NCBI GenBank assembly: GCA_021613535.1
Contig: CP075497.1
Location: 5,084,001 to 5,148,000 of the forward strand
Origin: Adineta vaga
Taxonomy: Eukaryota; Animalia; Rotifera
Length of the DNA: 64,000 bases
Direction of reading: 5' to 3'
Below the pieces are notes generated by a model. That model made no database searches. It was not told the DNA's origin and worked only from the letters and a program-made list of their open reading frames with translations. Both the position numbers and the translations under genes were made by a program. Numbering within the stretch: the stretch's first letter is position 1; every line of letters starts with the position of its first letter. This document shows positions 17,214-43,408 of the stretch, piece by piece.

Positions 17214-20200
17214 ATGATTGATAATATTAATAAATTATCATCAAATCTCGATGCAACAAAGCAACAACAACAACAACAGCAACAAACAGCGGCATCACTT
17301 GCTAATTTAACAGATGATGGTATGATCTCTTTGTTTTTCTCTCTGACCTTGATGATAAGAAGGAAACAAATAAAAATGGGAATTTCATATGGAAAATCAG
17401 ATTTCCGCCGTGATTCATTAAAGATTATATATTTCATCCGTTTTTACTCGATTTTTTTTCTTGAGAAAAGAAAGTTTTTTTTAGACATTCAGAAAGTAAC
17501 TGTTAGCAACCGTCATCTGATTTGATTTTGAATAAAACCATAAAATGTCATTTTCTTTATTCTAACTACTCAACATTTATTTACTTGATTAGAACAAAAG
17601 AAAGCTTTTTTCCTAGCACTTTATATTACTGAAGACAATGAAATGAAAGAAATTTCCATTTAAATGATTTCATCAGTTGAAGGTTTATTTAATCATCTGA
17701 ACTGAACAAAACGAAATAAGTTATTTATATATATATATAAGAAAGTATGAACTTGATTGCTCTAATTCTTCCCGATAGGAACTAATATCCTTGGAATTAG
17801 ATATCTTCAGGAAAATGAAATTTCCTGTTCGAAGGAAATGGATTCAATTTATGTATTTTTTTAATGAAATGAGAAATGTTTGAATAGGATTATTGAACAA
17901 GAATATGTTTGTTAATTGGAAATAAAAGCAAATAGTTACCGTCTGAAATATTTCTATAAGCTTGAGTCGATAATTAGTATAGTTAGAAGACATTTGTTTG
18001 CTTATGTCTATAATTTTCAATGAACTTATATATATGATTTTTATTTCGCAAATTTCATAATTGGTGAATAGAAAAATCATAAGTCAATAAATTGCTTAAA
18101 GTTCTATAAAAAATTCCGTCAATCTTGAAAAGAATTGATTCTATGTTATCTTTTAAATATCTAGATGTGATTAAGATATGGGATGCTGTTTCTGCTTTTA
18201 TTGAATCGTTTATGAAACAATCGAAAGTAAAAACTAAAAGCAGCGAAATTCTATAGTTTTCTTTTGAAAAAATTTAACTTTTTATTCAAATAGGGTGTTA
18301 CTATTCCTGGTTTTGGTACATTTACATTTGTACATAAACGTATCGATGTCGGAAACAATAAATATCTTCTCATTCAGCGGCCTATTTTTGTATTTTCGGA
18401 AAAATTTGCTCAAACTCACGCATTAAAATTTACTCATTATCCTGTGAATGGTTCGATACCAATTCATCCATTGAATTATTTTTATATTCAAATGCAATCA
18501 AATTATACACGAGATCAAATTGAACAATGTGTTAAACATGTTTTACAAGTATTTAATCGTTCAGTCGCCGCACAACGTAATGTTGAATTTACATTTTCAC
18601 GTATTGGAAAATTACAAATTCGAGAAGGAAAAGTTAAAATGAGATTTTTCAAAGATTTCGTTAATGAAGTCGATGGAAGTAGAGGAAAACATCTGTTTGA
18701 TAATGCGTGCAATGTAGGTTTTTCATGTTATCAAAGTAAAAAAATAATAATAACGTTTCAACTTATATAGAGGCCACGAACATCCGATTCAGTTATGTCT
18801 GCTCGGGAAGCAGCAAGACCTCCATCAGCTTCAAATGTTGTTCTTCCACGGTACATCGTTTAATCCGAATACTTTTACTGAAGAAAAAAAAACAATCTCA
18901 TTTCATTCTAGATTGAATAGTCGTGTTGGTAATCCAGCATTACAAGCTATTCATGAAGAAAATCATAATGAAGATGAACAACAAGAAACAGGTACAACAC
19001 AAACAAAACGTATACAACAACGAGGTACTGCATGAGATATTCAATACTATTAGAATTCAAATTTGTAAACAATTTTTCGATTAGATCCATCACTTTCGAT
19101 CACAACGCTTCCAATAACACACGTTGTAACGACAATAGGAATAACTAATTCGCAAGATGAATACAATTCTGCTGCACCATTTCTTTCTTCATCAGATCTT
19201 GGTCAATTATCTTCAGCATCACTGACAGGAAAAAGACCAGCAACACCAATGGCACTAGTAAAGAAAACAGTTACTTTTCATCAATCAGAAAATGACAATG
19301 GACAAACAACAAAGTAAGGTTCTGTATACTTTTTCTTTCGATGAATTACATTTGTCAGCGATTTCACAGAATAAATTCAAGGCATTTTCGAAAATTGTAT
19401 GTTTTATACTATTAATACGAAGAGAATTTCATTGTAGACCAACGCGTAAAATAGTTTCAATATCAGGTGATTTTGATTCGCTCACTACTTGCTTTTCTTG
19501 TGTGTAAAATAATCGACATTACAATCTTATTTTCTTCGTAGTAATTCATCGAACGGTGCCATTATTCGAGCAACGAATGAAAATAGTGCTGCACTTGGAT
19601 TTAGTCGTCCATTAACAGATCGTAGTGTACGTGATCGTATATCATCTTCATTAAATGTTCATCCTGAACAATATCAACATATCAATACTTCAACCATTAC
19701 AAAACCTTTAACACCTTGCGGACATCACGGTGCTGGACAAGAACTTTGTTATCTCTGTCATCAACGTGCCAAACGTAATGTTCCAGTTTATTTACATGAA
19801 GAACGACGTATACGAGAAGCTGAAGAAACGAAATTACTTGAACAATATCGAGATAATAAAGATCTGGAAGAACAACGCAAACAAGATGTAAAAGAAAAAC
19901 TATTGAACAAGTTGAAATGATTGTAATTTCGTTTTTATATAGGCTACATTTAAAGCTGATCGAGAAGATAAACAACGGATAGCTGCTGTTAGTATTTAAT
20001 ATTGATTTTTATACGTTGAAAACAATTCATTGTATTTTTAGTATAATTTGGGTATTGCCGAAGCTACACGAGCGAAAAAAATGGAACGACCAAAAACCAG
20101 TGATATTTCTGTAAGTTCCTTTGTTATCATTAAAATGTAGAGATGAAATCTTTTTATTAGCGTTCATTTGTATTTCGAAAACGTGTACAAACTCCTCCAA

Positions 20201-21071
20201 CTTATGTGCGTCAACAAGATTTAGCTAAACAATTAGATGCTCAAATAAAATGGAAACAAGATGAAGAACGTGCCGAAAGACAAGATAAACATTTTACAGA
20301 ACGTTTTGAACAATTACAATTAGCTGAAGCGTATGATGAAAACAAAAATAATCATTTCTTTTGTTTTAAATCGAATTCTTTCTATTTCAGCTTAGCACAA
20401 GAACGTGAAACATTCCTAAGAAATAAACGACTTCATCAAGATGAACTCAAAAGTGCTTTAGATAACCAAGTAAAACTTTTGATCAGAATCATTTTCATGC
20501 ATGTATTAATTGTATTATATTAGGTACGAAATAGACCAACTGGAATTCCTGCTGTCGAAGAAGCTGCACCATTTTTTGGTGTTCATGATATGTCTACTGA
20601 AATAGTTCATGAACGTCGTTTACAAGCAATGGAAATCTTTCGACAACAGAAAGAAGCTGTTGAACAACGTCAACGTCAACAATTACTTAAACAAATGCGT
20701 GAACAAGAATATGAATCACGAGCATTAGATGCTGCGAAAGAAGAGTATGTACATATTTATGATTCATTGTTTTTTGTTCTATATGTTTGGTCTAATCCTT
20801 TAGTTTGATATCTGATCGTCGTGAACGATTTCGTCGTGCATTTACAATACGAAAAGATCTTGAAACAGATTGGACAAATGCCATGGGAGAAAAACGTCAA
20901 CGTGATCAAGATGAAAGAACACATGTGTATGCTCCTCAAGGTGTACTAGTACACGAACAGTGTGATCAATACAAACGTTGTGCTCAATGTCAACGTCATA
21001 CAAATAATTATGGTACTTCAAACATATGGAAAGATACACGATATGTGCCTGGAACACGTATTATGGTTTGA
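17214..21071 (+). CDS. CCDC81: Coiled-coil domain-containing protein 81 (centrosomal/ciliary, N-terminal HU-like domains)
   Basis: Exon 1 (17214-17319, poly-Q) splices to 18165 to give VIKIWDAVSAFIE..K|GVTIPGFGTFTF..QRPIFVFSEKF, FSRIGKLQIR..VKMRFFKDF, GQELCYLCHQR, then coiled coils and C-terminal QCDQYKRCAQCQR..NIWKDTRYVPGTRIMV. Confidence 0.85.
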
Positions 21072-22028
21072 AACAAAACATTTTTGAATGAATTTACTTA
21101 TTTTTTATTTATAACGAAAGAAAAAGAAAACGAGCACTTTTTTTTAGAAAAGTATATACCCGGTTATCCTATTAACAAAAGAAAGACGTGAATATGGGAT
21201 ATTTTTATGTACGTTTTTTTCTCTTCGTCTTCTTCTCTTCGTCTTCTTCTTCTTCCTTTTCTATTCATTCTATTCTTACGAATAAAATCATATCTATTGA
21301 ATATACGTATTTGATCATGATGTACTTGTCAAAAAGAGTCAATATGAATTATTTAGAGTCTTGCTCGTTGTTGAACATTATTATTACAATAAAATCAACT
21401 ACATTGATTTGTATGCACACAAACGTATGTTAAATAGACATGAAATATATGCGCACATCTCTACACGCTTTCATATGTTCAATAGTTTTTCTTACGTAAA
21501 TTAAACGCAATGGACAAGGAGGAGTAGGAAGAAAAGAAAACGATGATGGATCAACAAACTTGTCAACGAAAGTTACGATACAGATATTACTCAAGCATGC
21601 AATAAGTATTGAACATAGTTCTATATGTGTTGGTATTAATGACAATATTTTGAATAAATAGAATTAATAAATAGTTTAAGAGGTAATTAATGTTGTATTC
21701 ATGTTGAATTGAGATTTCTATTACGAAGTGACCTGAAAGTAAGACAAACACGTGATGATTTCTATTTTAGTGAGCACGAAAAGAACCTTGACCTTGACTC
21801 GATCAAACAGAACAAATCGTTCATGCTCGACCAATTAGCACATCAGAGAAGGTATGAACAAAAAAAATGAAGAAGGAAAAACGTGAACTTTTGTATTTAG
21901 AAGTGCGTAAGAAAAAAAATGTAGGAAGAAATGAAAAGCGAGAAGGGCGCAAGCACACTTGATTACACATAGGTTTGTCTGTTCTTTCGTGCATCTTCAT
22001 CATATAACGGAGAAGAACCTGTAATCAT

Positions 22029-23237
22029 ATGATGAAAGTCGCGTTTGCTTTTCGTCCATTTCCGGCCAACTATAAACCAACATGTGATGCTAGTAAGATA
22101 CCTTCGTTCTTAAACAAAAAACCTCCATCTATTTTAATATCAGCTTTACCTGCTTCACCTTCATGGCATTTTCCATTACAAACATCTTCATCAATTCCAT
22201 ATATTTCTACTTATCAACGACATGTATCAACGATTCATGTCAATGGTATACCTTATACAGTAATGCGTTTACTTGGAGAAGGACTTCATAGTCGCGTGTA
22301 TGCAGCATACGATTCTCGAACGAATCAATCTGTTGCTATCAAAGTTGTTCAAAATATTGATCCAGTCGATAGACATGAAAATTCGAAAATGTTCTTTAAA
22401 GAAATTCGTTACTTAACAAAATTACAACCACGAAATCCTTATGTTATTCGAGTTTATAATCATGAATATGATACAAAAACTCAAACGGGTAAAATTGTAA
22501 TGGAAAGTGGACATGATTTTCGTTTTATGTTACCATTGCAAGTATCACCAAAACAAAAGAAAATGTCGACAACACAAGCGAAATTCTATTGGGCACAAAT
22601 GGTCGATGCAGTTGCTATATTACATCGCAATGGAATTGTTCATTCAGGTACAAATTAAAACATAGAAAGATTTAATCTGATCAATTTCCAATAATATTAT
22701 TTATAGATATTAAACCAGAAAATTTCATAATGACAACTGGTGATCAACTTCGTATTATTGATTTAGGTCTTTCATTTCGTATTTCACCGTCACAAACATC
22801 GGTATTAAGACCATTTGCAGGTAAAATGAAATTTTATTCTTGTTCTTTTTTTAAAATTCAAACTGAATGTTTTAGGCACACCAGAATATATGCCACCTGA
22901 AGTATGTCAAATTCAAAATGGACGATTTTCTCGTCAAGGCCGTGCATCAGATATTTGGGCATTAGGTTTGTAGAAATGTTACGATATAAAATAAAGGTAA
23001 ATTCTTTGTTTTCTAGGTGTACTTCTTTTTGAAATGGTTTTTGGTTATCGACCATTTGAACATATTCAAGATAATTTTGAAAAAATGTCTTTTATTGCTC
23101 GATTAACACAAAATCCAGTCATACCATCAACAAATAATCCTCATTTACGTGATGTTCTTCAACAATGTCTGCAAATCAATCCAATGGACCGTCCTAGTGC
23201 TCAGCAATTATTACAACATCCTTTTCTTTGCCTTTAA
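22029..23237 (+). CDS. Ser/Thr protein kinase, Mps1/TTK-like kinase domain with a short N-terminus
   Basis: LGEGLHSRV, VAIK, HS|DIKPENF, IIDLG, GTPEYMPPE, SDIWALG, DRPSAQQLLQHPF. Introns ~22648-22706, 22822-22875, 22966-23017. HSD catalytic loop, YWAQMVDAV and MPPE resemble Mps1. Confidence 0.8.
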
Positions 23238-23943: not shown

Positions 23944-26900
23944 TCAGATTCGAAAGACATGTTCATCTTGTTGTGATGAAATATTTGACGTTGATGATGG
24001 TGGACGGTCAACATTAAGTACGAGATCTGTACAACTATCAATAACAGGTAATTCTCGAAGATCAGCAGCTGTTTGAGACGAATTATCATTTTGATTTTGT
24101 GTGAATGATGGTGAACGACGTGAAAATGTATTATTTCCTTTATCAATTGTTTGAACAAATGATTGAACAGTTGATGATGATATTGACGCTGTATCATCGA
24201 TAACAACATCTTCAAGATTAATAATTGAATTATCACGTTGTTTGCTTGCAAAACGAAGAAAAACCTTTGAAAAAGAGATCATAATAATTAGAACAATTTC
24301 GTTGAAAATCTTTTTTCACATACGTGTTCAAGTGTTGTTTGAGATAATGAATAATCCACAACATTCATCAATGATTTATTTCTTTCAATAAATCCAAATA
24401 TTTTCGATAAGGAATATGATTTTGGAATATTATATTCTAATCGTGTTCCATGTTTTTCCTAAACAAAAAACAAAATCTCCTCTAAATCTTCACAAAAAAT
24501 CTAAACTTTGATATCAAACCGTCATAGTTGCATCAGTAAGATATTGTTGAACAATATTTGATGCAACTTGTATGGATGATTCATGTTCAAGACGTAATTT
24601 CAAATAATAACCAGTACCAAATCGATGTTTTAAATGTTGTGGTGTACCAAAACATTTAAATTGACCATTAACCATGATAGCTAAACGTGAACATAAAACA
24701 TCACATTCAGTCATGGAATGTGACGTTAATAATATTGCTTTGTCTTGTTTTTTTGCATTAATTATATTATTCCAAACTATACGACGATTTCCAGGATCTA
24801 AATAAAAATCAATGATTTCTGAAATTCTACTAAAATGATTTTATTACCCATTCCATTTGTTGGTTCATCCTAAAATAGAATACAAATCAATTTATTTTAT
24901 ATCATTCAAATTGTAATAAATATTTACCAATAAAATTAAATCCGGTTGACCTAACATGGCAACAGCAACGGATAATTTTCTAAACGAACAAATTGTTTTT
25001 ATTAATCTTAAAATATTTATTTTCATTTACCTTCTCATTCCTCCACTGTATGTTCGTATAACTCGATTTGCAAATGATTCCATATGAAATTTTCTCAATG
25101 TTAAATTCACCACATGTTCACGATCAGTTATACCAATCAATTTTGCATAACACATTAATGCTTCTCGACTTGTCAGATAACCATCGACAGCATCAAATTG
25201 TGGACAATAACCAATCGAACCGGGATGTTCACGTGCTTGATGACGAATTTGTTTTTCATATAAAAGACAATCTCCACTAGTTGGATGAACATCACCTAAG
25301 AACAAAATTCATCAAATAGATTTCAATTAAATACATTCAAAATAATATATTTACCGGTGATCATTTTGAATGTTGTTGTTTTACCCTAAAAGAATTCGTG
25401 AGAATTATGATGAAGTGAGAAAAAAAAGGATTTATCTTACTGCTCCATTTATTCCCAATAAACCAAAACATTGACCTTTGGATATTCCAAAACATAAATG
25501 ATCAACTGCTAATAATGATTGACCAGTTGCACGTCGAAAAAGTTTTGTTAAATTTTTTGCTTGTAAAATATCATGACTGGTATCATTTCCATACAATACT
25601 CGATGTCGTTCTTCCATGACATCTCGATCAACAGCTGTTTCTGGTGGTGGAATCTAAATAATTCACATATGAAATATTATTTTAATACACTAAAGTACGT
25701 TGAAATTACTTTATAAAAAAAATTTGGTAATCGAAGATCTAGATCAAGTATATATGTTATGATTAATGCAACGAAACCCACGATAATCATTGCTATGATT
25801 CGATCACCAACAAGTGACATTGAAAATGGATTTACATAAAGATCAGCATCGACTGTACGACCAAAATCAGCCATTAATTCATTACGCATTAGATGAACAA
25901 GTCCAGAACCGAGACAATAAGGTGGAAATATAAGAAAGAACCGTGATAATATTGTTTGTGCTCGTACTATTCCAGGTACCCATGCATATAATGTTAACAT
26001 TAAATCAGCTATACAAGTTATCATGCCCGAAAACATCCAAAGACAAAATGCAGCCATAAAAGCTGTACCTGTATCTTTAAAAAGTCGAACTATACAATAA
26101 ACTAATGGTATTGATGACCAGCCGTAAAGAAATAATAAACAAAATATTGCTCGAGTTGTCAGTGCACGAGAATTAAATGCCGATATATTGAATATTTTTA
26201 TTAAAAGCATTGTTAAACTAATTAAAATCAAATAGTAAACTAAATCCCAAATAAATGTTGATACCCAATAAACTAAATACAAATATATTTCATTTAGTTT
26301 CTCATATGATCAATTTCTTACCTATTGGTTTAACACCACAAATAAACATTAAACGTTTTTCTTGTGTTACATATTCTCTTACAAGATAAAGAATAACAGC
26401 AGCTGGTACAAATGAATATGCGCAAAGAACAGTTATTGCAACACCAAAATCCGATATACGTTGTTCAAGTGATTGTTGAGATAATAGATCACTATTCAAT
26501 GTAAATGGATGACTATAAGTTGATATACCAAATTTTTCAGCTGTTTTAGGATCCGATGTTTTCGAACGAAGAATCAAATTATTCATAACATTTAAATAGG
26601 ATGGTAAGGCATGATAACCTAAAAGAACAGAAAAGAATATCTTTTTGTTGTATGAGAGATTCAAAATTATCTTTAGAATACCTTTATTATTGAACCAAAC
26701 TAATGCGTGACTTCGATTATGATAATCATCTTCAATTTGTTCACCAAATGTTAAACCACCATAGCTAAAAAATTAACGAATATTTTTATCATGCAGAAAA
26801 AGAATAAGTTGATTTCATACCGATTATCAGTGAATGCATGATGACTTTTCAGTAAATATTCATTCAATGGAAAATTGTTCATATCATATAACTAGAAATA

Positions 26901-29900
26901 AATCAATAAATAGAAATTTAGTTTTTACAAAATATATTTTTCAAACGAACCACAATGCCAGATTTTGTCTTTCGTGTTGGTGGTCGTCCAAATGAGTCTG
27001 CTGGACAAATCTAATCATTAATGAATGGTAAATATCGAAAGATAAGAAAAAAAAACCGAAGTAGTTCAATTGTTACTTGTAATGCTTTTGTAAAACAGTC
27101 CGAACATCGTGCATATTGATTATAATCTGTTGAATCGGGTGGTACATAAAAATTCTTATCTCCTTCTCCACATTTATACGGTCCTTTCGTAGATGCTGGT
27201 GGTGCATCTTTCATACAAGTTGTGCCAATATTTGGATATGAACTATTTCTTAGTCGATCATCAAGACGTCGTGCAATTGGATCATTACTATTGAATAACC
27301 TGAAATAGAGTAAATTATTTTTAGCAAAAAAGAAAAAGAGAAAAAAATTGAAATTTTTCGCTTCAAGAATAAAAATAATTATGAAGTTAGGAATGTAAAA
27401 AAAAATATTTCTCGCCAAATTTCAATCGAAAAAGAAAAACCAAGGAAATTATATGTTTCTTATAGAAGTCAACAACAACAACAACAACAACAACAGCAAT
27501 ATCTTCCATCAAGATCTAATTTGTTTGCGTTTTTTGTTGGTAGATAAGTACATATGCTGCTTTACTGATCACACTATCTTCACTAATATCTGATACATAT
27601 GAATCATCAAATGAATGCCATTTTCTATCAACAGAATTCTTAGCATGCGCTGTATAATGTCCACCACCTAATCCACCCATATGATTACTAACACCAATTA
27701 AATCGTATTTCGCTGTGCTTTTTTCACTTGAATTTAAGACGAATTGTGAAAGATCTAATTCACGTAACGGACAATCAATGAAAGTATCGATTTTATCGCG
27801 ATAATAACGTGTATAATTAAAACGTTTCAATTGAACGATAAGAATTTTCGGTAATAACCATAAATCAAACTTTTTTGTTGCTTTTTTCAATTGTTTACAA
27901 TTTGGACAACTCCAAAGATCATTATCGGATAAAGTTTCTTTCGTAGTAAAATATCGAAAGCAATCTAATAAAGTCGTTACTCGTTTTGGTTGACCATCTT
28001 TTCGATTGTTATTCTCAGTTAATAGACGTTGATTTTTTTCATCTTCCTCTCGTCTGTCTTCTTGTTGTTTTTTATATAAATCGACAACCGTTGATGAAAC
28101 TTCCACAACCAGTTCCACATTCATACGACCGAAGTCAATTGGTTCATCCAGATAATTGGATAATAATTTCAATTGTTGATGATAATTTTGACTTGTTTGT
28201 AACGACGCAGTATACAATGGTTTATCCGATGATTTAACGGAAGATAATGGAAGAAAATTTCCAATAACTTTCTAAAAAATATCGAAAGATTGAATTGAAT
28301 TTTTTTAAGAAAACAAAATATCTTTAATTTTACCTGTAAAGCATCTTGAACATGTTTTCCAGTACAATTCTTTCTCGGCACAGACAAATAAATAGGTAAA
28401 CCAAAGTTTTGACGATAGTTTCCTTCTCGAAATGTACATGGCATTAAAATATTTTCTTTTTTTTCACCTGTTATTGGATCAGGAACTTCAAAGAAGACAA
28501 CTTGATCACGATCCAGAATACGTGTTAGAGGAGTATTGTCATTATATTGTAAATGTATTCGATGATTATAAACTTCCGCAGAGAGAATATAATCTGGTTT
28601 AGGTTGATGTCCATCAAAATCTGCTGCCTTTGTTAAATCTTCTTCATCATCTTCTTCATTATTTTCATCTGGATAGGCGGCATCTTTCGATTCTGATTGA
28701 TCTCCAATATCCATCGGTTTTTCTTGATTAGTTTTTTTCTCTTTTGGCTGAAAACGACTACAAAATGCGTCAACTAAATTCGATACTCGACTGTGTTCAT
28801 CTATTTTAATATGATACGATTTAATTTGTCCATTAATACGAACATAATCGATTTTATACGTTCGAATCTTTTTCTTATTTGGTAATGGTAAACTTAGAAA
28901 ACAGATTGGATCAAATGTACGTGCTTTTGTTTGACATGTTAAACATTGTACAACTGATTTGATTTGTCCATGAAAAAGTTCATGAATCTTTGATTGATTT
29001 CGTTTTCGATAGTATTCCCAATCTTGTGCTGCTAATGCTGCATCGTCTAATGTACCATCGTCATCTTTTTTCTCGACATATGGTTTTTGTTTTACAAGAT
29101 TTAAATCTTCATGTAAACCATCGAGTAAAAATGACATAAATTCTTGTGAATCTTGTTGAGCATAACCACTAAATTGTGGTGCATATCGTGCAACGTTATG
29201 TTTTAAAGATTTTGGTGCGCAATAACTTGTTTTGCCTGACCACATTTCATGAATCAATTCACCATATGCTTGAGCAACATCACCTTTCATACCTAATGGA
29301 TTATTTCGATTGATATGTTCTCTATACTCATCGTCAAAAAAATACTTGGTTAATTCTGGAACATTGGATAAACATTGCAAAGCTGAATTCATAAAACATG
29401 TATTACCCAAATTTGTTAAACCACAAAGTCCTTGAACATATAGTGTTCTTGATGAATTAGCACTTCGTATAGCCAATGGTTTCGATTCATATATGATATA
29501 CGCATCTTTGATTAAATCAATATCTTCGAGAACTGCATCGAATGGTTCATCGATCACTTCCCAATTCGAACCTTGCTCATTAGTAGATGCATATAAATAA
29601 TGGTTTGAGGTTTCCAAAATATTGAATTCATTACATATAGTTTTTTTTAAATCTTCTAATTTTGTTCGACGACTACGATAGATTTGTCTGCACTTTGCAT
29701 TGGCTGCTCGTGATTCACGAAGTCGTAATGGTATAAGAAATGTTTCGATTACAGCATCAAAATAATTGCCTTGTTTAACAGCTTTTCGAACAATTTCAGT
29801 ACCATTTTTTTTATGTGTTTCCAATAGATTCTCAAAAAGTTCGTAAGGTATAAATGTATAATCATTGCCTTCAACAGCATCTGCGCGAAGTTGAATGTTT

Positions 29901-32900
29901 TGTGGATGATTATCTTTTGAGTGAACTGCTAATTTAGTGAAATCTATCTCACCAGGATCTGTAACAACTTGTTCATGGGATTCTTCCAGTCCAACAAAAC
30001 GCTTCCAATGTTCCAACCATTTGGCATCAATAATCACATATTTATCACCAATTTGTGGTTCCTTAGAGAGCCATTTTTTATATTTTTCTAACTGCTCGGC
30101 TGGCATCGTTGTATTGACTAGTTTTCTTTTTTTGTTTAATAAAATACTCAAGAAATTCGTGGTGAAAAATTATTCAGAAACGACACGAACGGCAAATGAC
30201 TAAGGTAAAAAGTGTCGTCGTGTTTTCGATACCGACAATATTTAGTCAAAGAATCGGTGAAAAAAACCAACCGCAAATATTTGCATAGTGCAGAAAACGT
30301 TCGTATTACTCAGCATAATGCATAAGAAGAAAAACAACATGAATTTCATCACAATGTCATCATTACAACTTCCGTGGAAGCTAGGCAATTTTTTTAGAAG
30401 AATCTTTTCTTATTTTTATCATGGATCATCAATCTCATAGAGAGAGAAAGATTGAGAGAATCAGAACTAATGCAATTTGACAAGATGCATAGATGACTCG
30501 ATTGGGTAATCTATGGAAAGAAGAAGTATCGCATAGTAAGTAATGTAATATTTTGTTGTCTTTCCTTTGCTCATTCAATCTCATCATTTCAAATAGATAA
30601 AAAATGATCGGTGGTGTTTTTATCTATAATCACAAAGGAGAAGTACTGATTTCGGTAAATCTAAATTTGATTTTCCTATTACGAAAGAATGATTTTTTGA
30701 AAATTCCATTTTAGCGTGTTTATCGTGATGATATTGGCAGAAATGCTGTCGATGCATTTCGTGTTAATGTTATTCATGCTCGACAACAATCACGTTTTCC
30801 GGTTGTTAACATAGCACGAACAAGTTTTTTCTATACAAAACGTTCCAATATTTGGTTATGTGCTGTTGCAAAACAAAACATTAATGCAGCTATGGTCTTT
30901 GAATTCTTAAATAAAATGATTGAGATCATGCAATCTTATTTTGGTAAAATCAGTGAAGAGAATGTTAAAAATAATTTTGTTCTAATCTATGAATTATTGG
31001 ATGAAATACTTGATTTTGGTTATCCACAAAATAGTGATACAGGTGTATTGAAATCTTTTATCACTCAACAAGGTGTTCGACCAGTAACACGAGAAGAACA
31101 AACTAATGTAACTGCAGCTGTCACTGGACAAATTGGTTGGCGTCGTGAAGGTATTAAATATCGTCGAAATGAATTGTTTCTTGATGTTATCGAATCAGTC
31201 AATTTACTTATGTCTCAACAAGGTCAAGTTCTAAGTACACATGTAGCTGGTCGTGTAGTCATGAAAAGTTATTTATCGGGTATGCCCGAATGTAAATTCG
31301 GTATTAATGATAAAATAACTGTTGACAATCGTACAAAAAATTCAACAGATTCAACGAATCCAAATAATAATACAACAAATGGTTCAACAAATCCAACAAC
31401 AACAAAAACAGCAATTGCTATTGATGATTGTCAATTTCATCAATGTGTTAAATTATCAAAATTCGAATCGGAACATTCAATTTCATTTATTCCACCTGAT
31501 GGCGAATTTGAATTAATGCGTTATCGTACAACAAAAGATATTAGTTTACCATTTCGTGTTATTCCTCTAGTAAGAGAAATAGGTCGAACAAAGATGGAAG
31601 TTAAAGTTGTAGTCAAATCCAATTTTAAACCAACATTAATTGGACAAAAAATTGAAATACGCATACCTATTCCACCAAATACCTGTGATGTACAATTATT
31701 ATGCATGAAAGGTAAAGCAAAACATAAAGCATCGGACAATGCCATCGTTTGGAAAATGAAACGTATGGGTGGAATGAAGGAATCACAATTAAGTGCAGAA
31801 ATTGAATTAACTCCTAATGACAAGAAAAAATGGAATCGTCCACCCATATCAATGAATTTCGAAGTACCATTTGCGCCGTCAGGTTTTAAAGTTCGATATC
31901 TTAAAGTTTTCGAACATAAATTGAATTATTCCGATTCGGAAACAATTAAATGGGTAAGATATATCGGTAAAAGTGGCTTATATGAAACACGTAGTTGATC
32001 AATCAAAATCAGACAAAAAACATTTATTTTTCATTGTACAACTTCAGTGTTGTTTATTAATTCTTCCCTTTACATTTCAATCGATAGTCAAATTCATTCC
32101 GTGCTTGTTTTCTATTTCTTAGTCGATCTCTCTCCCTCTCTGTTCTCACCTCTCTATGTAATTTCTTTTCTTTTTCTTTCACTATTTATAATAATATGTA
32201 TGTATGTATGTATAACTTACTTAACAAACATTGCTGATTGATCATACATTGCTGGAGTTAATAACCATGGCCGTTGGAAGATTTGAGATGGACGTACCAG
32301 TGTAAAACCCATGGACATTGCAACAAATACCAGTGGAAGGATAAGATGTGAAAGAAAAACTTTCCAATTACGTTTTGTATGATGAAAACGTTTTAATAAT
32401 AAAGTTTGAAATTGATGGAAATATAGTTTACGACCCATAACTCGAGCAGGTCTTGTTAAAGGTGCAAGAGTTACATTAGATGTTGTAGGTAAATGAGCTG
32501 TACTGCTACTAATCGTTGATATACCTTAATAGAGAGAGAATAATGAAGATAAATTTGCACCATTAATTATGACATTTTTCATCAGTTAAATTAGATTGAT
32601 ATGTTGTTTATAGAGTGAGAATGTTTGCTTAACTAATCGAACTTCCGATTTCTTTTTTGTTACTTCTAAAAACTCGCTTCCTCAGAATTAATTCACTATA
32701 CTAGATTTTCAGGAATTCTACATGAGTGATCAGAAAACAGTAATCGTCTTATCCAATTAGAATATTCAATGATAGGTCAATGTATTTGCAGTAGAATAAA
32801 TCTTTTCTATTCAATCAACATACCATCCATAGTTGCATTGGATTCTCCACCTAGACCACTATCATCACTTCGAGCAGATGAAAAAGGTGTTTGGTCAATG

Positions 32901-35900
32901 ATAATTTTCGGTATTGTTGCATTATCATTTGATTCATCCATTTTTCCTTGATCAGCTAATTCTGTTACCCAGAGAAAAACTTCTTCAAGTGTCGTATCTG
33001 ATATTCCATAATTTCCAATAGCTAAACGTTCTTTACTAAGTTCAAGTTGTTTAAAAAGACTTTCAAATTTATGTCGTTGTTCATGTTTAAATGAATATGT
33101 TATTTCACTTCCAATATGTTCTCGAAGTGTAGCATCAGGCATTTCTTGTAAGATGAATGTATTCACGTCTTTAAATTGTTTACTTTCTGCAATAAAAGAA
33201 GAAAATGATAATCAAATTCAATGATATTTGTGTTATATAATCTTTACTTACCCACAACTTTCATTTTATTATTCATTTTAAGTTTTAAATCAATTGTTAA
33301 ACTATAACCTCGACCAAAACGTTTCTTTAAAAACATGGATGAACCACTGCATAATAAACGACCTAGAAGAAAAAAAGAAGTTGATTTCAAAGGCTAATCT
33401 CTTTTCTTATCTTTAACTAACCTTGATGAATAATAGCAATTCGATCACTTAAAGTATCTGCTTCATCAAGATAATGTGTTGTTAAGAGAATTGTTCTTCC
33501 AGTTCTATGTTTAAATATAACTTCCCAAATACTTCGTCTTGCACATGGATCAACACCTGACGTTGGTTCATCAAGAATAACTGTTCTTGATCCAGCAACA
33601 AATGCGATACTAACTGAAACTCTTCGTCTTACACCACCAGATAATGATGACACAGGTTCATGTTGAAAGATCCATAAACCCATACTACTCAGTAATCTAT
33701 TCATAAAATAACTTCAAATAAAAACTTAATTAATACGATTGAACTTACTCATTTATATCTCGATCTAATTCTTTTGAACTCATATTTCCTTTCAAGCGAC
33801 CATAAAATTGTAGATGTTCTCGAACAGTCATAAAATCAAATAGAATATCTTCTTGTGGACATAAACCCACATTTTTTCGGATTTGTTCATATTCCGTTGT
33901 TATATCTCGTCCATAAATACTTGCTGTACCATTTGTCGGAGGATAAATTCCTGTTAAAACATTAATTGTTGTTGTCTAAAAATGCAATCAAAGTAAGAAA
34001 TTGATGATCGGAACAGAATCTCTTTACTTTTCCAGCCCCATTATGTCCAAGCAGTGCAGTTATTTGATTTTCATAAAGTTTTAAAGATAGATTTTCTACT
34101 GCTTTCTTTTTATCACTATAATGTTTTGATAAATTTTCAAATGAAATTCCAACTTGTAAATCAGTTGGTTCCTGTTCGTTATTTGGATCAATTTCTAGAA
34201 AAAAACAAAGATTCAAATGAAATTATATTCTCAGTTTTTTTCTTTCTTACGTTTCATTCGAACAGTAAATGGATTTGGTTGATGATCACGTTCAATATGA
34301 AATGATGAATTTAAACCATCATGAAACTGAGCTCTTCTCTTCCAAAAACACCATGTTGATGGTAAACATGGAAACCATAATGGTTTCGTTCGAGCATTTT
34401 TACCCGGTAAAACTGAACGAATATATTTGCCAACTAAACCATAAATTATTGAATCAACTAACATCATTACACAAGCAATGCCAAAACTCATTTGATCATT
34501 TGGAAATATCGTTTTAAAAACTGTATTCCATTGAATACCTTCACCTTGATATTCAAAACGAGTTAAATATATCGATGCATAACCAAATGCTGTAGCACTA
34601 GACAAACTCTAGATAAAAAAGAGAGATTTAATGAAAATTATCGATCTCAAAAGAATTGATTTCAATCAACATACGATGAGTAATTTATGACCTAATTGCA
34701 TTTTTGTTTCAAGAAACATAACAAGAATAAATGGAAGATACGAAATGAAATAAATCAAAATGCCGCATAGTGTTGCTAGATTTGCTTTAGTAAAAAACGC
34801 ACTCACTAAATATCTAAAACATTTCCAATCAAATAATTTCAATTAACATTCAAAACAATTTCATTCACAAACCCGAGCATTAATGCTGACAAAGCTAAAG
34901 TTAGTAATGGTGCTATTGTGACAGTTAGATCTGATGCAGGATAGATTCCACCATATTTGAGAACGACTAGAATACAAACGATTTCAATTTCGAAAGACGT
35001 ATATTCTTCAAATTTATACCAGCAACAATAATTGAAACAATAACCATTGGTATAAATGAAGTTATTAACCAAGCAATAAAATTAATAGTAGAATTAAGTC
35101 CCATAATTTTCATTGTCTAATAACAAAACTTCTTTTTTTACTTAACTATAAAAATTTGTGATCATTACCTGTTCTACATTTCTTTCACGTTCACGCATTA
35201 GATTTTTTATCGATACACCCAATGTTGCTAAATAGTACAATACTTATTCTAATCAAAACTCAAGTATAGATCTCTACCTGTCCACATTAATGTTCCCAAA
35301 ATGGGTAAGATAAAATAATTCACATACGATGACTCTTTTCCACTAAATTGAAGAAACTATGCAATCGAAATTCATTTAAAAAATACAAACTTACGGATCA
35401 CCACGATAACATGGATATGGCATCAATTGCATATATACAACTGGATTTGTTGATGGTTTACCTGTATCTTCAAAGTGTAAATCGATCACTGCTCGTTCAA
35501 TTAAATCTTGTAATTGTATAAAACCACGTAAATAATGCATTTCACGAAAATAATCATTTTCCGGACCAGGAAAAAACAACCAACTTGTTAATTGTTCAGT
35601 TGTTCGTACACTATCTACATCCATACGAATTTTAATATGAATATGTGGTGGAAGAAAATTTGCATTTGGATTCGAACTATTTAAATTCGAGAAGACAATA
35701 CCTATGAATTTTTATCAAGAGATAAATCAAAAATTTGTTCGAGATAGTAAGAATGCTTTTTAATTACCAGCAATGACCATTCGATTTCGATGAAGTTCTT
35801 TTGCACGTTCAACAAGTTCATTTTCTGATTGAAGTGCTTCAAATCGATTTAATTCAATACATGGTAAATAATCACTAAATTGTTTCATAATAACTTCAAT

Positions 35901-38900
35901 ATTTTTCAAAACATCAACATTAGTTGTACCACCGAAATTATCTAACATTGATGTTATTGATTGAATATCAATTACATCCATTCCAATGATATTACTAAAT
36001 AATTCTTGAAAGAAATGATTCGATAAAACTTTCTAAAAGTAAAATTATCAATAAGAACTAATCGAACTCAAAATAAAAAGATTTGTTTACCTTAATATTA
36101 TTGGTATTTTGTAGATTGCCTAGTAGAGCCGTTAAATTTAGTGGTGAATTAACCCAAGTTTTAGCAAATTGATGAATTTTATCTAATTCTTCAAATGTTT
36201 TATTAACCTTAAAACGAAAAAATCATGATCTACAATTCAAAACTATTCAATTCTACCTTTGCAATAATTGCATTTGCAACAGGAGTAGCTGGTGCATATA
36301 AAATCTTTCCCATAATCAATGGTTTAATCAATGGCCAGACAATATAACCTACATCACTACTTTGTTCAATACTTCGTCGAATATCCGAACAATCAACTTT
36401 ATTATCTAAATATACGATATTTGAAATAAGTTTAATTAAAAGATTTTCTTTGTTAAACCTTCTTCAATCGATTCTGAAACACGTTGATGTATTGTTGTTT
36501 CTGTTTCATTAGTTTTCTTTAATCCATCTTTATTTTGTTCCGTAAAAACTTCTTCATCATATACTTGTCGTTGCGGATTAGATGGCTTATCAATTTCTGC
36601 ACAAAATATATTCGTTATTTTAGCAAATTGATCTTGATCTAAAGAAATTGAATTCAATTAGTTTGTATTTTTCTTTTTCTTTCACATTATTTCTTACTTC
36701 CTGATGTATCTTCTTGTGGATTTAATCGTTTAACACGTTTTAATAATTCATTAACATCATTAACAATTGGACCCACTTGTTTGAAAATACCGATTTCTTT
36801 TTCATCCATATTGACTAAATCAACTATATATCGACCACCATTTTTAACAAACTTAAGAGAAATAGACGATAAAAAAAACATGATATGAAAGAGAAATATT
36901 CTTTTACCATTTGTAATTTGTCAGGTATGAGAAGATGTTTCATGAATGATTTCAAAAGATTCGTTTGATTTTCTAATGACATTTCACATAGATATTTAGA
37001 TAATTTTTTTACATCAAATTTTTCATGAAATTGTAGATAAGGCCACGTTTTATAGATAGTTGTATTTAATAAATCAACATTGCAAACTGTTTTCTGATAA
37101 TCGGCATAGAGATTGAATAATATCTAAAAATAACAGAATAAAATGTATCGAATGTAAAAAAGAATATTGAATAAACTAACGATTGGATCTTTGAAAAGTC
37201 GAGCTTGTTCTAAAAGTTGAATAGTTAACGTAGGAAATCCATAATCACGTCGAAGTTTGTTTAAAATAAATGTAAAATTTTTGAACACATCTCTCAAAGG
37301 TACTAACAATAAAAATAAAATGAAAATTTGTTTTTCATTCCCTTGTTCAATCTACTTACATCCATTTAGATTTTCTTGTAAAATAATACTTAATTCATGG
37401 ATTGTTTGAAGACCATCAATAATCGATAGGATCATTTTTTGCATATTTTCATCCGGTAATGCCCAGAAATATTTCTCAACCAAATGTGAAACACTAAATC
37501 AAACCAAACAAAGATGTATTCTTATTTTCAAATACATCAAACTTTTCGTTTACTTCGATCTTAATGCGTCGAATTTTGGAAGATGAGTTGTAAAATTCAT
37601 GAATAGTTTATAGATTTCAATCGGTGATACTTCTTGTTGATTAATACCATTGACAAGTTCCATTAACCATTGATGTTCATTAATTAATTGTTCGAAATCT
37701 GCTTTCATAAATGGCATTTCATTAATTAAACGTTCAATATCCAATCCATTATATTTCTACGAAATTCAAATTTAGTTTTCGAAAACTTCTTCTTCTTAAC
37801 TTACTTTCATTTCTATTGGTTTACCATATTGTTCAATAAATTGTTGATAAGTTTGATTGTAGAGAAGTTCACTTCGACATAAAGTCCATTCTAATGTATC
37901 CGGTGAATCATGAAATGAAACCGCATATTTTTTTATTTGATTTTGATCACAAAAGATGTTTTTCAATTCACCCGGTGAATTTAATTGACCCTTTAAAAGT
38001 TACAAAGAAAAAATTCATTTCTTTTTCTTTTCATTCGAATTCAATTCTTTACCAATCTTGTATTGAAATACCATTGATTCAATGATGGTATACTTCGATT
38101 CTGTTGTAAAAACAATGTGAAATTATTGGCATCTTCAATCATATCATTGATTTGAACGAATTTAAATGTATTTTGAGAAAATATCGGTGCAAATATTTGA
38201 ATTAATGGTGTTATTTGTCTAATCGATTGAAGAATTGACATATCACCAAATATAAAACGAAATAGACCAGGTAGAATTTTTAAACGTTCAAGTGTTTGTA
38301 AAATTGTTTGTTTTAAACAATCAATTGTATCGAGAGTAATAGTATTATGTTGCATAATTTGAGCTAAATTTTGATAAACTTGAATGTTTTTCACAACATC
38401 AACAATCAATGAACAACTGAATTTTGCTTGGAAACCGTTTTGAATCAATTCACGAATCTTAAATAAGAAATGAATTGTTCAATATCTCGATTTCATTTTC
38501 ATTTACTTACTAATCCGACTGTTTTATTTAAACGAAGAAATTGAGAAATTTCGGCATAATCACTATTTGGATTTTGTACACAACGAATACGATTTGTTGA
38601 GGTTATGATTGTCATAAATGTATTAACTAATTCCAGTAAACGTCCAATGCCGAATATATAATTCAGAACTGGATCATTCGGAATCAAATTAATCAATGGT
38701 TCTAAACAAAGAAATTCGAGAGTTTCCGGAGAAAATGAATTGAACATTTTGACAAAATCAGGAATCATTTCCAAAGGAGAATCCGATGTTTGAGATTTAC
38801 CAAGAAGACCAGATAAAATGTTCAATTGCTACAGAGAAATCAAATCAGAAAAATAACAAAAAGAAATTTCAACTTACACGTTTTTGTCGTTTAACCCATC

Positions 38901-41414
38901 GATTATAATCGGTCATATTCGCTGGGATTGCAAATGATCTTGTTATATTTGAATTAAGAAAATTATTAGTATGTAATAATGTTGCCCAATCAATATATCG
39001 AGCTCGAACTCGTGGTTTAGTTGTTGTTAGAATATTCGACATATTCATCGTCGTTGTTAAACGCATCATCTAGAACAAAATATCATTGGAAAACATTTCG
39101 CTCTCACCTTTAATAACTTACTTTAGTTGGAACTGGTGTTGTTAAAAAATTATTAATTTGATTGACATTATTCACAATATTATCGATTGTTCCACGTGGA
39201 ATTCCTGCGATGACCGAAACAAGCTGATCAAAATTGACTAAAGGTGTTAAAATCGGTATGGCAATATCTAATGTATTAAAAATAGGCATTTTTAATAAAT
39301 CCGGATTGAATGTTCTTGTCATTTGTTTAACGAAATTATACGAACTAAAATAATAAAAAATAATTCAATGCAAAAATCACGAATTCAAATCTATTTACGC
39401 ATAAAGATTAAGTCCAGCTGTTTTTGTTCTTGTTAATAATTCACTCACTGCTGAAACACTATCGAATGTTAAACGAAGATCATTTTCAAATGATCCAGCT
39501 TTATTAACTGTAAATAATATATTCGCTAAACCTTCGAATACCATTGGTGAAAAACGCATATCATTGAAATACTTTTGTAACTAAAATAAAATGAAATAGT
39601 ACAATAAATTCAATCGAAAAAATCATTTACCTGATCGAAACGAATGCCACTGATTAAATTATTATAAATCGAATCTACATTATTATGAGTACCACAATAT
39701 CTATCCACGCGATCTTTTAAATTTTGTGATGTTGCATCGTCTAAGATGAATAAAGTCCAGTAACCGGGTTGAAGACATATAGCTCGATGTTTTGCTACAC
39801 CAGTTATTTTTCCGACAAGATATTCTGCTAACTGAAAAAATTTGATTTGAAAAAAAAGATAAGAAAGAAGAAATCTTACGACAAGAAAATTGATTTTCGA
39901 ATTTAATATTTGACTTTCAATTTTTTTCGATATAGTCAAATCGGATTGTAAAATTATATTCAATGGTAAACTACGAAATAATTCTTGTGCTGTGATAGTT
40001 TGTGCTAAACATACAAATATAGTTTTTAATAATGAACAAAAGATTCGAATATTTATTCTCACTCATATTATCATAACGTTGAAGAAAATCAACAAACATT
40101 TGAGTGATTTCATATAATTGTAAAATAATACGTTCTTCAGTTATTATATGTAAATCAGATAACATTTGACCGGCACTAAAATGTGAACATAAGATTCAAT
40201 CTTATCAAAGATGAATTCTACTAAAGTAAACTTACAGTTGTATTAAATCGCGTTGATTCTGTATTAATTCAATGATTTGTATCAAACGTGGAAGAATTCG
40301 TACAATTTCTGTCATATTTGGTATATTTTGTAATAATGCTCCATATACACTTAATTGTTTAACTGTTTGTTCTAAATCTCTTAATTGTTGAATCTTATCT
40401 CTAATATCTTGTCCATTGATTAGTTGTGAAAGATTTCCAAACTAATTCGAAAAAAGAAAAGAAAAAGATTACTTTGCAATTACTTGAAATTAAACATTAC
40501 ATATCCATCTAATGTTTCATGATTTAAATCATTGATAAATGTACTTAAATCCATAGTTAAATTTCGAATATTTAATTGACACAATGCTTTAATAGCGATA
40601 TCTGCATTATTTGAATTATCAATCGTAAGAATATGATTGAGAAAACTCGTTCGACAGAATGGTTCTAAATTAATTGTTTTATTAAATGTATTATAGATTT
40701 CTGTTAGATCAAAAGATCCATTCAGAAAATGATCAATTAAATCATTGGACAATCCAGTTAAGACTAAATCATTTTTCAATCTTTTTGTATCATTAAATAA
40801 ATCCGACATGTAAAATTTTCCATCCAGGATTTTTTGTAAAAACGTATCATTGAATGCATTATTAATACGATCAACACTACGTGTTAGATTTGGTAAATTG
40901 TATAAGACAGTATTTACACCTTCGGTTTCAGTTAATCCAAGTATACCATCATAAACAGATGGAAGACTACAAAACAAAAGAAATTCGTTTCGGAAATCTA
41001 TGTGTCGTTTGACTTACTAGTTTCTTAGCGACGATGTTTGAGCATCGAAGGGCTTTAAACGACAGCTAACATTTGTATTGCACAAAAAGCTTTGAAGAAA
41101 ACCAATGGTACCACTGTTAGGTAATGGCATAGGATTGTGATAACCTATTTCAATAAAAAATAAATAAAATTTTAATTTGTTTGAATAAGAAAAAACTTAC
41201 ATGCTGGTCGATCTTGAATAGGTGAAGTTTTTCGAACAATTGCAACAATAGAAAAAAGTAATAGAGGCCAAGCGATTTCAAAAACAAAAAGAACCTAAAG
41301 GAAAAACATAGAATGATTATTTTGTTGTTAAAATAATAAAAAAATAGTTACCGGTTGTCGACGACGAAGTAGAAAATTCTTTTTAAATAATATTCGAAAT
41401 TGTGCAAATGCCAT
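23944..41414 (-). CDS. Full-length ABCA-subfamily lipid transporter with a very large first extracellular domain
   Basis: Start [21 protein letters not shown]|[54 protein letters not shown]1: [35 protein letters not shown]. Second half: WFNNK|[13 protein letters not shown]2: GINGA|[19 protein letters not shown]|[10 protein letters not shown]. Over 40 exons; intron 27300-32220 contains two other genes. Confidence 0.92.
27470..27498. repeat. (CAA)n microsatellite in the USP 3' region / ABCA intron
   Basis: caacaacaacaacaacaacaacaacagcaa seen directly. Confidence 0.8.
27516..30106 (-). CDS. Ubiquitin carboxyl-terminal hydrolase, USP4/11/15 family (DUSP-UBL-USP), nested in the ABCA intron
   Basis: DUSP ([20 protein letters not shown]), Cys box [38 protein letters not shown], His box [34 protein letters not shown]. 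Single intron 28272-28333. Confidence 0.93.
30604..31998 (+). CDS. AP2M1: AP-2 complex subunit mu, nested in the ABCA intron
   Basis: [17 protein letters not shown]|[77 protein letters not shown]. One coding intron 30655-30714 and a probable 5'UTR intron 30536-30596. Confidence 0.97.
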
Positions 41415-41677: not shown

Positions 41678-43408
41678 CCCCCATCTGCGACAATAACATC
41701 AGCATGAGCACGTGTTCATGTAAGCTTCGAGTAAATACGCATCAGTCTGTCTATTCACGATGTGATGAATACTTTTAAGAAAGAAGAAAGAGACAGAAGA
41801 AATATTGTCTATATGTATATCTATCAATTCTAATCGTCTTGCAACACGAAGAAGAAGGTGTAAATTAATCAATACAAACATTTCGACAAACTCGGCTTCA
41901 TAATATTCATGCAAAATGATACTAGTAGTGTTCAAATAGAAGCTTAACATATTCGAACATATAGATATGTGTATATCGATGATGAATGAAGGTCGATTGA
42001 TGTCTAAAAAAAACAACATAACGAAAAAAAATACTTACATGAAAACAATACTTCGAATAATATTAAATGCTTTTTTACATAGACAAACAAGTAGACATGA
42101 TTGCACAATGATTAGTTGAGAATTTTCTTAACAAATCTCTCTTTTATTTCTAATGTTGATCCTCTCACACTCGAGTTTATTCTATATATTAAAGCGAAAG
42201 GCACGTCATCAGTCTGTTTGATAAAATACAGTTCTCTTTTTCTTGTTCCCTCTTCTTCTTCTTCTTCTTCTACTTTTCGTTTAGATCATTAGCCATCCGC
42301 ACACCTACATTTTGTTCTCGTGAGCACTTTACTTACCATCATGTCATTCGTTATGTGATGGTATTGTTGTTCTTTCGTAATTTGATCATTACCTCTCCTA
42401 TTTCATGAAAAGCTGTTTTGTCATTTTTCCTTCTGAATGTCCATGACATTACTCATTCGTTTTCAAATTTCAATTGAGAAAAACGATTAAAACGAAGAAA
42501 AAAGAATGAAACGAATAAGCCTAGTAAAAACGCAAATAATAGATCACCTGTCTTTTTCTCTTGTTGGACCAATATTATTTCTCGACAAATCAATGTTCTA
42601 CACTATTAACATCAATGGATGAATGTGTAAATGAGTTCGACGAACAAAAGTTTTGTCGTACTAGTAGAAATAAACTGGTCAATATTTGTTAATTGACATT
42701 GTATTAAAGACAAATGAAATGCATTTTCAATGGCATTGATATAAATAAGAAAAAAAGAGATCGAATTGGATAAGATTAGATTCGTACTTCATTCATAAAA
42801 CAACATAAAAGTATTGGTTTTAAGTGCTAAAAGTTCAGTTTAGATGATATAAGAAAGAAACAATAGAATTTTATGAAATACAATTAACTTAAGGTAAACT
42901 TAATATTCGAATTATAATAAATGGTACTATCTATTTTTTTTCTAATATTGAAAGTCATGAATTAATCTTATGAATCAATTTCATAAAGTAAAACATCACC
43001 AAATGACGTCTCTATATATTGACGGAAGAAGCTCACATTTCAATGTATTTGTATTCGATTTTGTTGTTACTAATACTATAATTTTTTTCGCTTTTTTTTT
43101 CTATCACGAAATACCGTCATCGTTACCATGGAATAAAAATCAACAAATCTGACTAACTGATATTCTATCCATACTCGTTTATTTTTTGTATCAACATTAA
43201 AATTGATTAACTATCCATAGATGCCACTATCATTATCCTATAGCTATCAACAAAATATATCTCTTTCTTTTATCAATGGTCACTAAGCGACTCGGTTTCG
43301 AGTACGGTTGATATGATCATATCGATGCATAGTCATTAGAGATAAGTTCTGTTGAGAAGAGTGTCAAATGATAATAGACAGATACTGTTAACTTTCATAA
43401 TATTATCG

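Follow-up and report, generated by a model that had tools for sequence, protein, structure and literature searches.

A 64,000-nucleotide stretch of the genome of the bdelloid rotifer Adineta vaga (assembly GCA_021613535.1, contig CP075497.1, positions 5,084,001 to 5,148,000 of the forward strand; hereafter the window, whose own numbering is used throughout) harbors a minus-strand gene for an ABCA transporter, the two halves of which lie on either side of the coding regions of two other genes, AP2M1 and a USP4/11/15-type deubiquitinase (USP). The two ABCA halves are spliced together in RNA. Only the coding regions of the two guests sit fully within the separating intron, intron 36, as unspliced RNA contigs cross both of its borders. 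By sequence comparison, the layout is conserved across Adineta and Rotaria. It is probable, at roughly two chances in three (about 0.68), that the halves are joined by ordinary cis-splicing of one long transcript running through both guests.

The ABCA Gene and Its Intron 36

A splice-aware path was used to model the ABCA gene, starting with the ATG at 41414 and finishing with the stop codon at 23944; intron 36 was supplied, and the other introns were picked by score. The model comprises 50 exons and encodes 3,206 amino acids (aa) free of stops. Among its 49 introns, 47 measure 48–66 bp (median 56), one measures 299 bp, and intron 36 measures 4,921 bp. This is in agreement with a preliminary description of this DNA, which had singled out one outsize intron among introns of ∼50–70 bp, the 299-bp intron apart. 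Nine introns, each short or the 299-bp one, were confirmed as joints in RNA contigs, four of them in the 5′ half and five in the 3′ half; the other 39 are predicted only. Intron 36 (27300..32220, minus strand, phase 2, GT-AG) has the donor AA/GTAAGT with its first base at 32220 and the acceptor TTTCAG/G with its last base at 27300, and the phase-2 join of exons 36 and 37 reads ...AMFV-K-LFNSND, as expected from the earlier observation that the ABCA frame breaks at 32220 and resumes in phase at 27300. The donor is of ordinary strength, 12 of the 48 other ABCA donors scoring higher.

Exons 1–36 (32221..41414, minus strand; aa 1–2335) are predicted by the model and by hydropathy to encode transmembrane helix (TM) 1, a first extracellular domain of ∼1,550 aa, TM2–6, nucleotide-binding domain (NBD) 1, R1, and TM7, and share 73–82% identity with the Rotaria protein P0006. 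Exons 37–50 (23944..27299, minus strand; aa 2336–3206) are assigned the remainder of the second extracellular domain, TM8–12, NBD2, and R2 on the basis of the model, alignment, Pfam, and solved-structure matches. The hydropathy profile follows the ABCA pattern: a single helix at the N-terminus, then the first loop, which is very long, a cluster of helices, NBD1, and TM7 (aa 2290–2308, directly before the break), followed by a second cluster. A full ABCA transporter has ABC2_membrane_3, ABC_tran, and R domains, two of each. One such set was recovered for the 3′ half, in P0012, and the other for the 5′ half, in its Rotaria orthologue P0324; the window exon 33695–33420 also matched ABC_tran in Pfam. 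The first extracellular domain (window 36000–41000) is the least checked part of the model, as P0006 lacks aa 320–708 in the alignment. ABCA residues 2365–3206 are represented by a public Adineta vaga protein with 100% identity (842/842). The family carries out ATP-driven lipid transport, a role ascribed to this protein from family membership only. The 299-bp intron (32525–32823), which is spliced in RNA, directly precedes exon 36 and contains an AATAAA on the plus strand at 32795; it is apparently missing in L001, a metagenome contig of a divergent rotifer described below, where the alignment is continuous.

The fit of the two halves is unlikely to be accidental. Among 14 acceptor-like AGs scanned in intron 36, the one at 27300 opens the longest frame after the donor (96 codons; runner-up 57), and of the 45 long proteins, drawn from 150 exon-36 representatives, that gave alignments to the joined region, 39 cover the join as one piece. 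Together, these results place the join beyond chance. Vertebrate ABCA12 and ABCA13 and mollusc and chelicerate proteins were named among the 10 long hits looked up.

RNA Evidence at the Join and at Both Borders

Seven sequencing runs (X10–X14, X16, and X17) were available as assembled contigs only; they are not recorded as RNA but carry spliced introns. Logan contigs are described, in the accessible part of the source, as non-branching paths, with a simplification that removes weak paths and contigs of <150 bases (bioRxiv 2024.07.30.605881). The contigs give neither strand, phase, nor molecule continuity, and a contig extending over two genes is not proof of a single transcript. The joint 27299–32221 is missing from the joint listing of four runs because a simple repeat that covers the donor is skipped there.

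The join was observed directly in X12. A contig of 2,966 nt (depth 43.4), whose pieces come from two mappings paired by length, depth, and strand, places its bases 1–37 at 32262–32226, 482–776 at 26616–26322, and 777–1049 at 26272–26000. The spliced model (32221>27299) predicts the contig coordinates 37, 482, 776, 777, and 1049 exactly, and the depth bin of 37.1 suits a contig leaving the genome at 27299 (37.08 vs. 37.91). No unspliced crossing of the acceptor was present in X12, the joined form being the only surviving path. Indirect evidence came from X13, in which eight letters of the 5′-half contig remain after 32227 and the unspliced contig begins at 32248; the resulting 30-letter overlap ends at 32219, the exact point of divergence between the spliced path and the unspliced one. 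The exon 36/37 join is thus seen directly in one run and indirectly in one more of the seven, and the transcript linking the two ABCA parts that the preliminary description had looked to is supported by the fit of X12 and the branching of X13 at the donor.

Unspliced RNA was also found over both borders. At the acceptor, a 5,816-nt contig of X11 runs from the USP 5′ end, with the USP intron spliced, unspliced over 27300 and into spliced ABCA exons; a contig of X14 likewise crosses 27300 unspliced from USP into ABCA exon 37. At the donor, unspliced contigs were present in X12, X13, X14, and X16. That of X16 extends to 32330 at a depth of ∼31 compared to 3.9 for the ABCA 5′ half, and that of X14 was computed to end at ∼32421, just beyond an AATAAA on the plus strand (32398..32403) opposite ABCA exon 36. 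This signal, also present in L001, is a candidate distal poly(A) signal of AP2M1.

The Guest Genes and the Signals Around Them

AP2M1 (AP-2 mu; 30604..31998, plus strand) encodes 444 aa and has one intron (30655–30714), seen as a joint in RNA. It contains Longin and mu-homology domains (PF01217, PF00928) and shows ∼80% identity to many named AP-2 mu proteins. The USP coding sequence (27516..30106, minus strand) encodes 842 aa and also has one intron (28333–28272) seen in RNA; its translation carries DUSP and UCH domains (PF06337, PF00443), the UCH being split, with Cys and His boxes, and its best solved matches were USP4, USP15, and USP11. A UBL domain after DUSP is a feature of USP4/11/15; no UBL family scored in the Pfam scan of the nested USP. 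Both genes are regarded as housekeeping genes. Their start codons are separated by a head-to-head spacer of 497 bp (30107..30603), a likely bidirectional promoter, of which ∼95 bp beside AP2M1 are conserved in L001, where the spacer measures 217 bp. These domains, matches, and spacing uphold the earlier identification of a divergent pair, USP on the host strand and AP2M1 opposite, about 500 bp apart. The mutual regulation that it had also raised, and its speculative link of the guests to ABCA through endocytosis and deubiquitination, receive no support from the present data. Further RNA contigs agree with the spacer over just a short segment near 30405–30411, beyond which they continue into unrelated sequence. 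A second, diverged AP2M1 was present in the RNA contigs of all four runs with listed joints, with 53 differences in 621 bases (window 31032–31988) and another sequence after the stop; it is likely an ohnologue.

The preliminary description had regarded the guests as two complete genes nested in the intron. Their coding sequences are indeed intact and lie wholly within 32220–27300, filling ∼81% of the intron and leaving 222 bases at the donor end and 216 at the acceptor end. The guests are nevertheless not cleanly nested, since guest RNAs appear to overlap host exons, as indicated by contigs running unspliced over both borders. The AP2M1 3′ untranslated region (UTR) likely passes the ABCA donor into exon 36, and AP2M1 RNA would then end at or past the donor, antisense to that exon. 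No extra synonymous conservation was detected under this predicted overlap (aa 2262–2335; 37/60 vs. 940/1620, p 0.34); it was raised only around the AATAAA (18/22, p 0.017), in a segment chosen after the fact.

Two conserved motifs were found at the intron ends, both on the minus strand. A 13-base motif common to the window and L001 (32090..32102) lies 119 bases past the donor and, on the other strand, also within the AP2M1 3′ UTR; a shared word of this length occurred in 4 of 1000 shuffles, and its 9-base core is single in the window. The motif TTATTCYYGAA (27362..27372) lies 39–73 bases ahead of the acceptor in 4/4 sequences (window, L001, L011, and L033), from which it was itself defined, and occurs once in the 64-kb window. 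Either motif may belong to the 3′ UTRs of the guests. No small RNA was found in intron 36, the single Rfam match (E 0.94) being below the gathering score.

Conservation Across Bdelloids

Three metagenome contigs (L001, L003, and L004) carry the ABCA 5′ half, antisense AP2M1, USP, and the ABCA 3′ half in the same order. They are near-identical and were hence counted as one organism, a divergent rotifer with a USP ∼60% identical to that of the window. The phase-2 sites are kept as AA/GTGAGT and TTCTAG/G, and the intron measures 4,462 bp. In L011, USP precedes the same acceptor, and in L033, the acceptor is kept. The same order is implied by accession adjacency in five named bdelloids. AP2M1, USP, and the ABCA 3′ half are represented by CAF1169315, CAF1169333, and CAF1169350 in A. 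steineri, by CAF3362741, CAF3362752, and CAF3362763 in R. socialis, and by CAF2134782, CAF2134780, and CAF2134777 in R. magnacalcarata. In Rotaria sp. Silwood1, the ABCA 5′ half (CAF3401041) and USP plus the 3′ half (CAF3401063) occur on one contig, and Rotaria sp. Silwood2 has the ABCA 5′ half with USP plus the 3′ half (CAF2387249, CAF2387265) and the ABCA 5′ half with AP2M1 (CAF2949961, CAF2949976). The synteny in other rotifers that the preliminary description had proposed as a check is seen in the metagenome contigs and implied in the named species; no ABCA evidence came to light for Didymodactylos or Brachionus. R. socialis has additional USP models of 656 aa (P0036, P0039, P0040, and P0041) that are near the nested USP and shortened after the N-terminus, likely recent duplicates.

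The position of intron 36 likely predates the guests, as judged from protein alignments. Of 96 short exon-36 hits, 43 had a recognisable post-TM7 motif, and 17 of these 43 end 14–19 residues after the motif, like the rotifer exon. Two of the 17 are rotifer-like, taxa having been looked up for a minority of the short hits. Read as single-exon gene calls, these 17 hits suggest that the intron position is older than the guests, and the intron would already have been old when the AP2M1–USP block was inserted into it in an ancestor of the bdelloids.

One ABCA Protein or Two Half-Transporters

None of the fetched public bdelloid models joins the ABCA halves, which are given as separate proteins. A full-length joined public model was not found either, in searches covering proteins of ≤2,000 residues plus one representative per 50% cluster, so that one may exist. 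Several lines of evidence bear on whether the 3′ half could stand alone. The 28 codons from the acceptor to its first methionine are conserved at the protein level, with third positions varying most (L001, L011, and L033), and this methionine (Met2365) is a leucine in 5 of 20 models, all from Rotaria sp. Silwood2. Considered as a downstream cistron, the 3′ half has no conserved start of its own, and TM7 sits in the 5′ half. An in-frame stop follows the donor directly in the window, in L001, and in 11/11 fetched 5′-half models, all 11 of which end at AMFVK; such a stop arises automatically since a phase-2 GTAA or GTGA donor yields one. Most likely, then, it is the joined protein that functions, because the 3′ half is without TM7, the codons preceding the methionine are conserved, the methionine is lost in Silwood2, and the stops are automatic; the public models would be artefacts.

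A mostly split gene is therefore improbable. It would make the join a minor event, the main products being a truncated 5′ half and an operon-like USP–ABCA RNA from which spliced-leader trans-splicing at 27300 would release the second cistron, to give two half-transporters. The stop after the donor, the dominance of unspliced paths in several runs, and the separate public models would fit such an arrangement. However, TM7, which in the known ABCA topology takes the second extracellular domain across the membrane, would be missing from the 3′ half, the loss of the first methionine in Silwood2 and the conserved codons upstream would be unexplained, the joined form is the sole surviving path in X12, and the stop comes with the donor. 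Still less credible is a real USP–ABCA fusion protein, as given in fused models from six bdelloid species (Rotaria sp. Silwood1, Rotaria sp. Silwood2, R. socialis, R. magnacalcarata, A. steineri, and A. ricciae; P0001, P0003, P0004, P0017, P0030, P0046, and cluster members), some of them named "Ubiquitinyl hydrolase 1." Among the eight fused models inspected, at least four different junctions occur, none of the 8 GT sites within the final 150 bases of the window USP has the phase 2 required by the acceptor, and no USP-to-ABCA joint occurs among the listed joints of four runs. The fusion was rejected on these grounds, and the fused models are likely gene-finder artefacts. As regards an assembly mis-join, which the preliminary description had named, along with the lack of a linking transcript, as refuting its view, neither was found. 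A simple repeat does lie just within the donor side of the intron, and the runs examined are of RNA type, but the same order in independent metagenome contigs of a divergent rotifer and, by implication, in five named species, together with RNA contigs spanning both borders, excludes a mis-join in practice.

Cis-Splicing Versus Trans-Splicing

For ordinary cis-splicing, the host polymerase would have to pass oncoming AP2M1 transcription, the divergent promoter, the USP intron, and the USP 3′ end. It would get through because the USP 3′ end is weak, which would equally explain the reading of USP RNA into ABCA exons 37–50, a by-product coding for the USP protein only. The joined mRNA would encode the 3,206-aa lipid-transporter-like protein, since neither half has the full topology alone. 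Several observations are consistent with this. The halves are collinear, on the same strand, and 4.5–4.9 kb apart, as is needed for cis-splicing and not for trans-splicing. The stretch before the acceptor contains neither AATAAA nor ATTAAA in 4/4 sequences (window, L001, L011, and L033), and sense-strand AATAAA counts are low in the introns of both the window and L001 (3 vs. 7.7 and 1 vs. 4.8, respectively). Splicing from the ABCA donor to USP's own acceptor would meet a stop after 34 codons.

A number of points weigh against this reading. The join is direct in just one of seven runs and indirect in one more, the surviving path through the acceptor in X11 and X14 is unspliced from USP, and X14 and X16 go through the donor unspliced; no X10 contig spans the donor, and there is little coverage of ABCA in X17, making both runs uninformative at the borders. 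As the contigs carry no strand, phase, or molecule continuity, the single pre-mRNA is something we infer. Coding sequence is a confounder for the AATAAA shortage, L001 shows no deficit of ATTAAA (6 vs. 4.5), and two sense AATAAA lie just past the donor in the window. The near-identity of L001, L003, and L004 reduces the number of independent cases, and accession adjacency is indirect, though consistent, evidence of gene order. The absence of the join from the remaining runs is itself weak evidence because weak paths and contigs of <150 bases are dropped by the simplification.

The preliminary description had also raised the possibility of two separate pre-mRNAs, a question on which the USP-to-ABCA read-through contigs bear without giving strand or molecule. 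In its fullest form, which we regard as possible but doubtful, the 3,200-residue ABCA would be built from two promoters by intragenic trans-splicing. The ABCA 5′ RNA would be halted past the donor, meeting AP2M1 transcription head-on, and be joined to a free acceptor on the deubiquitinase read-through RNA, so that the USP promoter would supply the ABCA 3′ half. The X11 and X14 contigs, unspliced from USP into spliced ABCA exons 37 onward, have the expected form. Between the USP intron and the acceptor, neither the window nor L001 has a strong donor (0 sites with 7/9 matches), and trans-splicing in mod(mdg4) requires, according to the accessible text of PMC4387717, a free acceptor without a strong upstream donor. 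Two sense AATAAA (32023..32058, minus strand), 163 and 193 bases past the donor, are candidate ends of a 5′-half RNA, a conserved motif is present at each intron end, and rotifers are reported, in the accessible parts of PMC4824033 and PMC12460157, to trans-splice spliced leaders. A weak hint comes from depth, the 3′ half (17–43) being similar to USP (19–36) and above the 5′ half (3–9) in X11, X12, and X14; these depths can equally be explained by 3′ bias, and X10 has a 5′-half depth of 23.7. Other tests went against trans-splicing. Base-pairing between the intron ends showed no excess, the duplex energy being within the shuffle range (41 and 121 of 200 shuffles as strong), and the two motifs were neither above shuffles nor top-ranked in complementarity, ranking 14th–38th among ∼150 sites. 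A conserved U1-binding pseudo-donor was not found in the 5′ part of the intron: L001 has a donor-like site (∼5498–5506) ∼45 bases past the true donor, with 7/9 consensus matches and a score of 10.1 compared to 6.0, the use of which would include a stop, whereas the window has none before intron position 536 at the same threshold. The sense AATAAA pair is absent in L001, which has ATTAAA at +118, and all species examined keep the halves collinear. The preferred reading is therefore cis-splicing of a single long transcript.

Comparison With Known Systems

The closest known layout is that of intron 22 of human F8, with F8A and F8B. As described in the accessible text of PMC3211038, this largest intron of its host also holds a divergent pair with an apparent bidirectional promoter, and the sense transcript, F8B, continues into the last exons of F8. 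However, in F8B a short first exon is joined in frame to exons of F8, and that text gives no mouse equivalent, whereas the rotifer sense guest encodes a whole 842-aa enzyme, ends in a stop of its own, and continues downstream without splicing. Also in contrast to F8, both rotifer guests are widely conserved, the other host introns are ∼56 bp, and the layout is kept in two bdelloid genera.

Guests in a long host intron, in both orientations, are known from mammals (accessible parts of PMC11694760 and PMC3192792), as are intron retention and cryptic polyadenylation near nested genes (PMC3192792, same part). The preliminary description had held same-strand nesting to be the rarer form; the mammalian survey, covering all biotypes, does report in its accessible part a slight opposite-strand bias, but the shares are broadly similar (PMC11694760). 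According to the same part, human and mouse share only 25–31% of those host/nested pairs that have orthologues, and noncoding types are over-represented among nested genes (PMC11694760). The rotifer guests differ in being two housekeeping protein genes that occupy ∼81% of the intron with margins of 216–222 bases.

Drosophila mod(mdg4) and lola and C. elegans eri-6/7 provide cases, in the accessible texts of PMC4387717 and PMC4824033, in which the exons of one protein may ride on separately promoted RNAs. The free acceptor without a strong upstream donor and a conserved 13-base motif in the 5′ part of the intron recall mod(mdg4)/lola (PMC4387717, accessible text). In the rotifer, however, the motif is not a pseudo-donor, neither a conserved pseudo-donor nor pairing was found, the two ABCA parts lie in collinear order, and trans-splicing is only a candidate. 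At the protein level, ABCA12/ABCA13-like proteins and the solved ABCA1, ABCA4, ABCA7, and ABCA3 share the two TMD-NBD-R halves and the very long first extracellular domain and are collinear over the join; identity around the join is ∼26–36%, and ABCA12/13 is a candidate subfamily by hit names.

A literature search on this locus (bdelloid nested genes, ABCA, and AP2M1/USP) found nothing, most subscription journals and supplements lying outside the search. The rotifer locus stands apart from the known cases in having two complete conserved genes that fill most of an intron with short margins, in a host of otherwise tiny introns, with RNA overlap at both borders and conservation across genera.

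Neighboring Genes in the Window

Two convergent DUF3533 genes with long exons (1926–5022, Pfam) belong to a family that we take to be known mainly from fungi and bacteria; their horizontal transfer is possible. The open reading frames at 52166–53479 resemble homoserine or serine O-acyltransferase by eye and may be a possible foreign gene; the two pieces scanned gave no Pfam hit. The remaining neighbors, identified by Pfam, are a metallo-beta-lactamase-fold gene (864–1636, PF00753), a PLP-dependent dehydratase or racemase (11838–13028), CCDC81 (18294–20808), a protein kinase (22008–23237), an SH3 protein that is nephrocystin-1-like by eye (43346–45967), a cullin (47192–49792), and a CCT/TCP-1 chaperonin (61189–62920).

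Implications

For annotation, the findings mean that every fetched bdelloid model splits ABCA and that several deposited USP–ABCA fusions are likely false; gene finders tuned to tiny introns may hide further such loci. For RNA processing, the locus offers a compact and conserved natural test in which a spliceosome used to 56-base introns pairs sites 4.9 kb apart over two active genes, and also one that sets cis- against trans-splicing in animals that possess the spliced-leader machinery. Heterozygous sites in the RNA contigs make this test direct; examples on the two sides of the intron lie near 32426 and 32478, and near 27173. If cis-splicing alone operates, this would be an unusual but understandable case of nested genes. 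If trans-splicing were true, the mRNA tail of a housekeeping gene would be an obligatory supplier of parts for an unrelated gene, across genera. The three genes are locked together, in that shifting or losing either guest endangers the host, and this lock may explain why their order has been kept in bdelloids.

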